Origin: a virus
Lineage: Duplodnaviria; Heunggongvirae; Uroviricota; Caudoviricetes
Reading direction: 5' to 3' (one strand)
Virus record (IMG/VR): IMGVR_UViG_2582580966_000020
DNA: 9,066 nucleotides
The notes under the pieces are model-generated. The model searched no databases. It was not told the origin of the DNA and saw only the letters and a list, made by a program, of their open reading frames with translations. This document shows, one piece after another, positions 4,363 through 5,906 of this stretch; positions within the stretch are counted from its first letter, which is position 1, and each line of letters starts with the position of its first letter. A program made the translations under genes and the position numbers.

Positions 4363-4923
4363 TATCGCGTCCTCAACAATGAATTTTGTGATGCGGTGCC
4401 TGGTGCCTCCAGGTGACGTTAACCAGTTAACAATTAACGCCGGATACAGAGAATCCACCCATAACACTGTTTTTGGTTTTAACTGTTCCGCGTGCGCTCA
4501 GCCGCATTCACCACATCACAAAATTCACTTTAAAAAGGGCGGCAGAGCAGTCACGGAGTAAAACTGATACCGCCAAACGTCACCAGAAAATTGATAACAG
4601 AGGGCGTTGCAGCGGGGTTGTCACTTAAGCGTATGGTCAACCTGACAACTCGGTGTCCTCAACGGGGAAGAAATACCCCCGCCATACTTACCGCCGCGCC
4701 ATTTCGCGGATTGCCACAACCGGAAACGCACGGTCGACGAAAATTTAACGACAGGCTATCTATGAACCAGCTACCTCGCCGGGCGCTTTCGCGTTATGGT
4801 CTGACTTTTCAGGGAAATATCCTTTCAGTAAACTGTCAGTGCCGGATGCTCACCCGTGTCCGGCGCACGCACTCCACCTCACCCGTGGAGAACTCCTTAA
4901 TCACCAACCCTCAGGAGGGTGAA

Positions 4924-5199
4924 ATGTCGACTGAAAATGATGAAATCATTAACTCCCTGATACGCCAGATTAATAATTTTGATAAAGCATTGCAACATGC
5001 TGCGGCGCGTAGTGATATAACTCTTTTAGCAATTTCATTTCTTGCATCTGTTATGGATAAAAATGAAGTCGTACGACAGAGTCTTGTTGATTATATCGAC
5101 TCGCTTCAACCCGGCACTTTCAATCATGAGAGCTTCAATCATGAGAAAGAGCATGTTAAGTCTGTAATTAATTCTCTTATTTTGAATCAAAAGAATTAA
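4924..5199 (+). CDS. Hypothetical 91-aa protein, independently transcribed accessory (moron-like) gene on the strand opposite to the early-left operon
   Basis: ATG at 4924 preceded by AGGAGG (4912-4917) with 6-nt spacing. AT-rich coding sequence. Intrinsic terminator 26 bp after the stop. Protein MSTENDEIINSLIRQINNFDKALQHAAARSDITLLAISFLASVMDKNEVVRQSLVDYIDSLQPGTFNHESFNHEKEHVKSVINSLILNQKN has no family I can recognise. The ORF-track form 4591-5199 adds an Arg-rich GC-rich extension with no RBS. Confidence 0.6.
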   Translation: MSTENDEIINSLIRQINNFDKALQHAAARSDITLLAISFLASVMDKNEVVRQSLVDYIDSLQPGTFNHESFNHEKEHVKSVINSLILNQKN

Positions 5200-5509
5200 T
5201 GCTTTTTGTTGCAAAGTAATTTTCAAGGGGTTCTATTCGAATCCCTTTCTTTTTCATTAACAAGCCAAACCCCTTATCAATGATGTCCATTAGATCCAGG
5301 AAGTATTTTTCATGTAAATCCTGGTTATCAGAGAGCTGCTTCTCTTCGTACAGCCCGATAAAGGCTCGGCGTACGTTACCGGATATATTGTCGATGGTTT
5401 CTTTTTCTACGGTACTCAGGTCAAGAGTCGCCAGTTGAGAGCGAACCACATTCGATGCCATTTCCTGGAATGGTACTGGTAAATCTTTAAATTCCATCGT
5501 CAACCTCAT
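5177..5509 (-). CDS. Hypothetical 110-aa protein (early-left operon; AT-rich; 3' end overlaps the convergent plus-strand gene by 23 bp)
   Basis: ORF track 110 aa. Start ATG 5507-5509 overlaps the stop of the upstream gene (TGATG coupling). An alternative in-frame ATG at 5497 has GAGG 6 nt upstream. No recognisable family. Confidence 0.6.
   Translation of the reverse strand: MRLTMEFKDLPVPFQEMASNVVRSQLATLDLSTVEKETIDNISGNVRRAFIGLYEEKQLSDNQDLHEKYFLDLMDIIDKGFGLLMKKKGIRIEPLENYFATKSINSFDSK
5225..5254 (+). terminator. Rho-independent terminator for the plus-strand 91-aa gene
   Basis: AAGGGGTTC (5225-5233), loop TATTC, GAATCCCTT (5239-5247): 9-bp stem with one G-U pair, followed by TCTTTTTC. On the minus strand the hairpin is not followed by a U-tract, so it is directional. 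Confidence 0.5.
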
Positions 5510-5742
5510 CAGTCAGTGTTTCTGGTTAACCAGCGACGCGCGCCAGCTTCAGTTTTAAACGTTTTGCTTCTGGTATATGTCATCGCGGTAAACGTGCCGT
5601 CCTGGTTGGGAAACACGCCGCATACCAGAGATTCGTTGTTGCCAAGCTCGATAGTATCCATGCTGACCTCATTTCCCCTTAACGCCGGGGTAGCGGAACA
5701 AAAACCTGCTGCATAGTTATTAAAGTTGAACCCTGCCGTCAT
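5509..5742 (-). CDS. Small prophage protein, DUF1391-like (YdaF/YdfA-like core of about 50 aa from the internal Met at 5661), first gene downstream of PL
   Basis: C-terminal 50 aa (MDTIELGNNESLVCGVFPNQDGTFTAMTYTRSKTFKTEAGARRWLTRNTD) match my recollection of the E. coli Rac/Qin YdaF/YdfA small proteins. The internal ATG at 5659-5661 has GAGG 5 nt upstream. The ATG at 5742 (full 77-aa ORF) has GAGG 9 nt upstream. The true start is uncertain. Confidence 0.6.
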   Translation of the reverse strand: MTAGFNFNNYAAGFCSATPALRGNEVSMDTIELGNNESLVCGVFPNQDGTFTAMTYTRSKTFKTEAGARRWLTRNTD

Positions 5743-5842: not shown

Positions 5843-5906
5843 ACTATAGGAAATGCCTAATTACTTGTCAATAGGCTATGCCTAATAATTTGGGCGCAAC
5901 CTAATA
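5843..5906 (-). promoter_or_regulatory. Left operator/promoter (OL/PL-like): leftward sigma70 promoter with repressor operator half-sites
   Basis: On the minus strand: -35 TTGACA (plus coordinates 5866-5871), 17-bp spacer, -10 TATAGT (5843-5848). Operator palindrome TAGGCTATGCCTA at 5872-5884, imperfect TAGGAAATGCCTA at 5847-5859, further GCCTAAT/ACCTAAT half-sites at 5855, 5880 and 5899. The same motif family is found at OR. Confidence 0.55.

Follow-up and report, generated by a model that had tools for sequence, protein, structure and literature searches.

Two small genes that run towards each other and share their last codons raise the question of whether the overlap holds a functional pair together or was left behind by the exchange of prophage genes. 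Such a pair is present in IMG/VR record IMGVR_UViG_2582580966_000020 (Caudoviricetes), a stretch of 9,066 nucleotides, hereafter the window, which is a Rac/Qin-like lambdoid prophage located next to ompW in Escherichia coli. It consists of a plus-strand gene of 91 amino acids (4924-5199) and a convergent minus-strand gene, which is present in the window as an open reading frame (ORF) of 110 amino acids (5177-5509). The original prediction, made from the letters of the window, placed a 23-bp tail-to-tail overlap between them at 5177-5199. This was confirmed. In an E. coli chromosome with 99.9% identity, both genes are annotated by RefSeq and overlap to the same extent (WP_001435739.1 for the minus gene, starting at ATG 5497, and WP_000102678.1 for the plus gene). 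We conclude that the two genes are a genuine and conserved pair belonging to a wider pattern that has not been described before. The explanation that we favour, tentatively and with a confidence somewhat short of an even chance, is that the slot of sieB holds an exchangeable accessory gene, the plus gene, which faces a modular gene of the early-left operon; that the overlap is the exchange junction; and that excludon-type interference is a likely consequence of this layout.

Alignments with related loci located the overlap at the edge of an exchanged segment. When compared with loci encoding a 124-amino-acid form of the minus protein, the plus gene appeared as an indel of ~280 bp; these loci have ~55 bp coding for a longer tail in place of the plus-gene stretch, and homology is picked up again at ~5172-5180. 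The final 6-7 codons of the plus gene and its stop codon are thus the antisense of pre-existing minus-gene sequence, and the minus gene reaches its stop on entering the cassette. Compared with K-12-type loci, as represented by phage Tritos, the whole two-gene unit is inserted between ydfC and a conserved spacer, and homology to K-12-type loci stops at ~4911. The plus gene of the window (plus gene A) and two unrelated plus genes (C and D) have an identical left junction and ribosome-binding site, which in the window is a Shine-Dalgarno sequence (AGGAGG, 4913-4918, plus strand) 5 nt upstream of ATG 4924. As judged from this indel and junction mapping, the 23-bp overlap is the right-hand recombination junction of the exchange. 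The cassette lies in an AT-rich island of ~500 bp (~4900-5400; GC content 0.35-0.40 compared with 0.46-0.56 in the flanks), which had been predicted correctly except for its length, given as ~600 bp.

The gene order in the window (int, xis, exonuclease, ydfD, dicB, DicF, the convergent pair, a ydfA-like gene, a racR-like repressor gene, cro/ydaS, ydaT) is that of an early-left operon. The minus gene (5497 to 5177) is the second gene of this operon, which is repressor-controlled and of the PL/dicBp type. We propose that its product combines a conserved N-domain with an exchangeable C-module, and that the 91-amino-acid plus gene is an exchangeable moron, an accessory prophage gene expressed independently, placed convergently where Rac has sieB. 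Recombination at two conserved anchors would replace one cassette by another. On the left, the anchor would be the spacer of the DicF precursor with a twin hairpin, extending through the ribosome-binding site in types A, C, and D; the right anchor would lie inside the minus gene, with the junction often in its last codons. Because the right junction falls in these codons, each ORF would run briefly into the other and stop, resulting in the 23-bp overlap.

The minus gene more probably starts at ATG 5497, which gives a protein of 106 amino acids with the N-terminus MEFKDLP, because all relatives start there and GAGG lies 8 nt upstream; the N-terminal residues are invariant among the relatives. 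ATG 5509 may serve as an alternative start, since it overlaps the stop codon of the ydfA-like gene upstream in the sequence ATGA. Codons 1-57 (5327-5497, minus strand; MEFKDLP...GLYEEK) form a conserved N-domain that is common to proteins with at least eight unrelated C-termini, and codons 58-106 (5177-5326, minus strand) form the AT-rich type-A C-terminal module, of which the final codons lie within the exchange junction. The protein matched PHROG 6937, a family of unknown function, over its full length (E 6e-67, residues 1-106). The original prediction had recognised no family for it. Pfam, NCBIfam, PADLOC, and PDB sequence searches gave no significant match (PADLOC gave zero matches), nor did Foldseek. 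The PHROG 6937/MEFKDLP family is narrow: a search of 1.84 billion proteins yielded only 43 clusters when grouped at 50% identity, and a scan of genome contigs with the N-domain returned just two E. albertii loci. The ratio of nonsynonymous to synonymous substitution rates (dN/dS) was 0.24 relative to an allele ~86% identical at the DNA level. For the plus gene, dN/dS was 0.27 relative to the ~86%-identical allele and was the lowest among the six frames. These values indicate that both ORFs are real genes under purifying selection.

The plus gene showed a weak, full-length match to PHROG 18692, the family of plus gene B, and has been found in E. coli only; the A and B proteins are homologous (28% identity, E 9e-6). 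Searches of the plus protein against Pfam, NCBIfam, PADLOC, and PDB sequences gave nothing significant, the sole PADLOC match being BrxA with an insignificant score (E 0.014, 12.7 bits). AlphaFold2 models contained three helices for each protein, with a predicted local distance difference test score of 73 for the plus protein and 67 for the minus protein, so that the former is predicted to be a soluble three-helix protein and the latter a soluble helical protein. Foldseek comparison of both models with the PDB returned only generic helical bundles and proteins resembling ribosomal protein S20 (best E ~0.5), which we left uninterpreted. The frame of the plus gene is open for 111 further codons upstream through the spacer of the DicF precursor (4591-5199, plus strand), and RefSeq and other sources give plus forms of 117, 127, and 145 amino acids (e.g. 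WP_001317923.1). The 202-amino-acid ORF (4591-5199) and the 145-amino-acid RefSeq form were rejected as the true gene because their upstream part is the DicF-precursor spacer, which is also present in loci without the plus gene, because indels of the spacer in other alleles break the frame, and because a strong Shine-Dalgarno sequence precedes ATG 4924. The 117-, 127-, and 145-amino-acid annotations look like over-extended starts, those of 145 amino acids and more probably reaching into the DicF precursor spacer.

The window pair is one of many. Cassette loci gathered from IMG/VR, GenBank phages, and assemblies contained at least eight unrelated C-termini on the conserved N-domain of ~55 amino acids, and in nearly every type this slot was occupied by a different small convergent gene particular to the type, with an overlap of 0 to ~130 bp or, in one type, a gap of 80 nt instead. 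At least eight types have a convergent partner, of which seven match PHROG families strongly and plus A weakly. In type A, a minus protein of 106 or 109 amino acids faces the 91-amino-acid partner with an overlap of 23 or 32 bp. The sizes of the minus protein, the partner, and the overlap are 133 amino acids, 92 amino acids (PHROG 18692), and 41 bp in type B; 135, 77 (PHROG 10348), and 23 bp in type C; 124, 73 (PHROG 7249), and 11 bp in type D; 122, 100 (PHROG 8894), and 77 bp in type E; and 112, 64 (PHROG 4987), and 12 bp in type G. Type H combines a minus protein of 186 amino acids with an 80-amino-acid zinc-ribbon-like protein (PHROG 10133; 44 bp), and in type I a minus gene of 212 codons and a partner of 69 amino acids (PHROG 4274) abut. 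Type F, which includes phages encoding Shiga toxin (Stx) 2a such as P13374, has a degenerate partner only. In P13374, from the O104:H4 outbreak strain, ORF16 (2501-2896 of the retrieved stretch) has the same N-domain with ~44% identity; it lies in a different context, between a DUF2303 gene and ead/Ea22-like genes, with the hairpin element present and the convergent ORF reduced to a truncated remnant.

The C-terminal modules are not confined to the N-domain. In Salmonella prophages with a RecE/YdaE backbone and no dicB, a 93-amino-acid homologue of plus B is convergent with a free-standing 71-amino-acid gene, again with an overlap of 41 bp. The latter is the type-B module minus the N-domain, and the prophage also lacks DicF. 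Between E. coli and Salmonella, dN/dS was 0.25 for plus B and 0.19 for the B module, at a dS of 0.7-1.6. The possibility that the variable C-termini are junk read-through was rejected because the B module is a free-standing gene with this low ratio and because other modules match independent PHROGs. For the Gifsy-1 gene STMMW_26411 (PMC7067206), which was considered as a further relative, no connection to the N-domain family was established.

How strictly the two genes travel together was counted in 5,426 complete E. coli genomes. Plus gene A was present in 198 of these, and the junction with the minus gene was intact in 199 of 199 E. coli records with the plus gene. Likewise, all 59 IMG/VR contigs with the plus gene (retrieved by alignment of the plus proteins A and B, and all of type A) kept the junction and the minus gene, indicating that the arrangement is no chance. 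From the side of the minus gene the association is looser: its type-A C-terminal half was found in 736 genomes, ~540 of which, mostly with the 124-amino-acid variant, have no plus gene A. C-module A is accompanied by the unrelated plus gene D in 88 genomes, and a plus gene appears to be missing altogether from the remaining genomes without plus A or D, O157:H7 among them. The partner of C-module B is plus gene B (125 genomes) or alternatively an unrelated, non-overlapping 57-amino-acid gene that bears its own hairpin. By these pairings, plus genes are shuffled independently of the minus C-module. The solo 124-amino-acid form retains ~9 of the last bases of plus gene D and appears to derive from a D-type pair through deletion of the plus gene. 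The plus gene can therefore be lost alone and was never seen alone. The predicted module of two co-occurring genes thus stands in part: relative to K-12-type loci the genes are gained or lost largely as a unit and the plus gene does not occur without the minus gene, but the minus gene often occurs without plus A.

This asymmetry bears on the best-surviving alternative, according to which the two proteins are a cognate pair, the plus protein being a prophage-expressed exclusion, abortive-infection, or toxin-like factor and the minus C-module an early-lytic neutraliser that protects phage growth. A minus gene that often survives a clean deletion of the plus gene, together with a plus gene that is never without it, is also what would be expected of a harmful gene and its antidote. 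Moreover, plus B and the B core remain paired and under purifying selection in Salmonella without the N-domain or DicF, and a YmfI-type partner accompanies the E-type tail both in e14 of K-12 and in a dicB prophage. These observations are offset by the loose pairing of modules, since C-module A may have plus A, the unrelated plus D, or no plus gene as its neighbour, and C-module B plus B or the 57-amino-acid gene; the strict co-variation of C-module and neighbour that characterises polymorphic toxin/immunity systems was not found. The C-modules A and B have no similarity to each other, although plus A and plus B are homologous. Only the minus tail that abuts or overlaps the partner travels strictly with it, as physical linkage predicts, and linkage alone explains this. 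Neither a toxin, antitoxin, or defence family nor such a fold was found for either protein. We consider a cognate pair unlikely, and the dedicated toxin/counteractor module of two proteins suggested in the original prediction is not supported, on the same grounds of unrelated partners and absent matches.

At the other extreme, two unrelated small genes may have been joined by lambdoid mosaicism without any coupling, the overlap being a neutral scar. The junction mapping is what would be expected in this case, as each ORF merely enters the other side of the exchange point and stops. An A/G polymorphism at 5179 changes the minus stop TAA to CAA, so that the protein grows from 106 to 109 amino acids and a 23-bp overlap becomes one of 32 bp, at no apparent cost (the same change replaces Ile86 of the plus protein with Val), and the overlap varies between types from nothing to ~130 bp, with one type showing a gap. 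Domain swapping is routine in early-left operons (PMC8022706). However, the convergent layout recurs with many unrelated pairs in three prophage backbones, the K-12 members of this architecture have overlapping transcripts (PMC12288877), and DicF and dicB can be transcribed from the leftward promoter only through the plus gene, which makes some interference hard to avoid. Complete independence of the two genes is, in our estimate, rather improbable.

The excludon-type interference that we consider a likely consequence of the exchange would depend on the transcription of both strands. On the minus strand, the minus gene lies in a repressor-controlled early-left operon, in agreement with the prediction that the minus gene is expressed after PL derepression. 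On the plus strand, a terminator-like hairpin of 9 bp with a T-run (5225-5257) is located 26 nt past the plus stop and within the minus coding sequence, where a terminator had been predicted; the hairpin itself spans 5225-5247 and is followed by TCTTTTTC. The 68-nt stretch 5195-5262 containing it folds with -14 kcal/mol (z = -3.2). With a base composition unlike that of the flanks and a terminator of its own, called by consensus match only, the plus-gene cassette has two of the features of a moron. Just upstream of the plus-gene slot, a twin hairpin (4841-4890, plus strand) contains two copies of the 10-nt motif CTCACCCGTG (4849-4858 and 4878-4887) 29 nt apart. Every N-domain cassette type that was checked has it, as do the Salmonella loci and Stx2a phages; it had no match in Rfam. 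As plus-strand RNA it folds with -28.1 kcal/mol and a z-score of -4.45, compared with a z-score of -0.40 as minus-strand RNA, a bias that hints at a plus-strand leader. The best promoter candidate found by eye for the plus gene is TTTTCA-17 nt-TAAACT (8/12, 4806-4834). Another promoter-like site on the plus strand (TTAACA-16 nt-GAGAAT, 9/12, 4427-4454) lies antisense to dicB, upstream of DicF; a transcript from it would be antisense to DicF and could continue toward the plus gene.

If the lysogen transcribes the plus gene independently and this transcript ends at the hairpin 5225-5257, the 3' end of the plus mRNA would be antisense to the minus mRNA over ~80 nt. Once the operon is derepressed, its leftward transcript would in turn be antisense through the entire plus gene on its way to DicF and dicB. 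Such an arrangement may lead to mutual interference of the excludon type through polymerase collision or RNase III cleavage, and antisense coupling of the pair is plausible. Excludons are convergent genes whose transcripts overlap and whose expression is mutually exclusive. The pair resembles them in its convergent overlapping ORFs, in the putative plus-gene terminator inside the partner, and in the repressor-controlled promoter of the partner, and differs in that its members are very short phage genes. Two pairs of K-12, sieB-ydaF and ymfI-ymfJ, have been listed as convergent excludons from RNA sequencing (PMC12288877).

Both K-12 pairs support the favoured explanation by their position. In the Rac prophage, sieB has the same slot and orientation as the window plus gene, between PL- and repressor-proximal small genes and kilR, which encodes a cell-division inhibitor; it is convergent with the minus-strand ydaF, which it overlaps by 4 bp. 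Correspondingly, the window plus gene lies between the 106-amino-acid gene and DicF/dicB and is oriented opposite to them. In P22, the early-left operon includes sieB as an exclusion gene, on which the antisense RNA sas acts as a control (PMC12197685). Phage L, a close relative, has no sieB, and domains have been swapped among its early-left genes; domain-level mosaicism and the presence or absence of sieB are established features of lambdoid early-left operons (PMC8022706). The resemblance ends with the proteins, because the 91-amino-acid protein has no detectable homology to SieB, is predicted to be a soluble three-helix protein, and differs from SieB in sequence and family. The sieB system of Rac, lambda, and P22 also has the escape functions esc and sas. 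Neither an Esc-type product from within the gene nor an RNA of the sas type is known for the 91-amino-acid plus gene. Judged from where its gene lies, the plus protein would most likely have a function that benefits the lysogen, such as exclusion, and the two proteins need not bind to each other.

The second pair, ymfI (plus) and ymfJ (minus) in e14, is directly downstream of the repressor and overlaps by 63 bp (2013-2600 of the retrieved E. coli K-12 W3110 e14 stretch). YmfJ lacks the MEFKDLP N-domain, and YmfI and YmfJ, both uncharacterised, are not detectably similar to the window proteins. Nevertheless, YmfJ is a mosaic whose first part is a type-B core and whose tail is of type E, and YmfI is homologous to the type-E partner. 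Derepression induces ymfJ; its RNA is increased late in the SOS response and the YmfJ protein has been detected, while ymfI rises little (PMC11002266).

Several results weigh against the favoured explanation. The constant presence of the minus gene beside the plus gene could reflect a functional protein pair beyond linkage, and so could the persistence of the type-B pair through deep divergence in a different backbone. The conserved spacer and twin hairpin are also present in loci without a plus gene, and their presence is thus no proof of a plus-gene promoter. No sigma-70 site of at least 9/12 was present between DicF and the plus gene (4589-4923), and a conserved sigma-70 promoter was not seen in the type-B or Salmonella loci. 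The terminator-like hairpin is specific to type A and not general in the other types; no consistent conserved promoter or terminator for the plus genes was found in type B, Salmonella, or e14. Finally, the plus protein showed no similarity to SieB or to any defence family in Pfam, NCBIfam, PHROGs, or PADLOC.

Other known two-gene systems resemble the pair less. Type I toxin-antitoxin systems such as txpA/RatA of the Bacillus subtilis skin element are prophage-borne and convergent, with complementary 3' ends. They combine a small hydrophobic toxin with a non-coding antisense RNA, which was not found here; both partners of the window pair are protein-coding and under purifying selection, and neither is a short hydrophobic peptide. 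A type II system, in which both genes form one co-directional operon, is not indicated either, as the genes are convergent and neither protein matched a toxin or antitoxin in Pfam, NCBIfam, or PADLOC. Likewise, neither protein was assigned to a defence system by PADLOC. In pore-forming colicin operons, a small immunity gene is convergent and constitutively expressed. These and the polymorphic toxin-immunity cassettes share with the window family a conserved N-part, a swappable C-module, and an adjacent small gene; the window family differs in that co-variation is not strict, the minus gene often has no partner, and the modules of ~50-150 amino acids have no toxin or immunity fold.

A more far-reaching scheme is that lambdoid prophages of the Rac/Qin/e14-like and Stx types use their sieB slot for an undescribed family of polymorphic conflict modules, formed by the MEFKDLP-domain proteins and their partners. 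The plus protein, expressed by the prophage, would block incoming relatives, the early-lytic minus protein would disarm its matching plus protein through the swappable module or tail, minus alleles without a partner, for example the 124-amino-acid form of O157:H7, would be escape genes, and ymfI/ymfJ would be a domesticated pair. We regard this scheme as improbable to much the same degree as complete independence. The reverse polarity, in which the minus protein would be an induced host-directed toxin or takeover factor like Kil or DicB and the plus protein a constitutive immunity protein against its leaky expression, is very unlikely: although the combination of N-domain, variable C-terminus, and convergent small gene resembles pore-forming colicin operons, and toxicity is known for DicF, DicB, and YdfD, which are made from the same operon, with spontaneous firing of dicBp in part of the population (PMC10448788), ~540 of the 5,426 genomes have the type-A C-half without plus A (88 with plus D, the others apparently with none), a lone immunity gene would be harmless yet is never seen alone, co-variation is not strict, and the C-module is only ~50 amino acids and has no toxin fold.

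A strong PL/dicBp-like promoter candidate on the minus strand (TTGACA-17 nt-TATAGT, 5843-5871; a promoter-consensus match) reads into the ydfA-like DUF1391 gene (5509-5661), the 106-amino-acid gene, the antisense of the plus gene, a GC-rich spacer, and DicF, beyond which dicB, a DUF1482/ydfD gene, the exonuclease gene, xis, and int follow. To the right of the DUF1391 gene lie the racR-like repressor gene and then the cro/ydaS and ydaT genes. The DUF1391 ORF can be read as 77 amino acids (5509-5742, minus strand), as it is called in other assemblies as well; the Pfam match and RefSeq correspond to the last 51 amino acids, starting at 5661. The DicF small RNA (4537-4588, minus strand) matched Rfam RF00039 with 76.7 bits in the whole-window search, and a sensitive Rfam search of 4580-5300 found nothing besides it. 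In K-12, the early-left operon producing DicF and DicB is under DicA repression, and the adjoining spacer (4589-4910, minus strand), the left flank of the cassette, is conserved because it is part of the DicF precursor (PMC10448788). In E. coli O178:H19, a RelE/RelB toxin-antitoxin pair lies between the repressor gene and the DUF1391 gene (2355-2833 of the retrieved stretch), a further sign that this region is an insertion hot spot. Four records of large plasmids contain the convergent pair as well, one of them with 100% identity; among these E. coli plasmids are NZ_OZ392475.1, NZ_CP195449.1, and NZ_AP026904.1 (195-238 kb), which suggests that a prophage or a part of one is carried on plasmids.

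The early-left operon encoding DicF and DicB has been studied in K-12, where it contains neither gene of the pair. About one-sixth of complete E. coli genomes, pathogenic lineages included, have an N-domain gene in this operon, and hundreds of these loci also have a convergent partner that lies in the path of the operon transcript ahead of DicF and dicB. Should lysogens express the plus genes, these would be unexplored candidates for lysogenic conversion or exclusion, with at least eight unrelated families in one slot, and the output of DicF and DicB could be modulated via transcriptional interference. The uncharacterised K-12 genes ymfI and ymfJ gain a comparative context from the cassette family. 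Even if the pair has no coupled function, it would still illustrate clearly that convergent genes can come to overlap through the exchange of cassettes.

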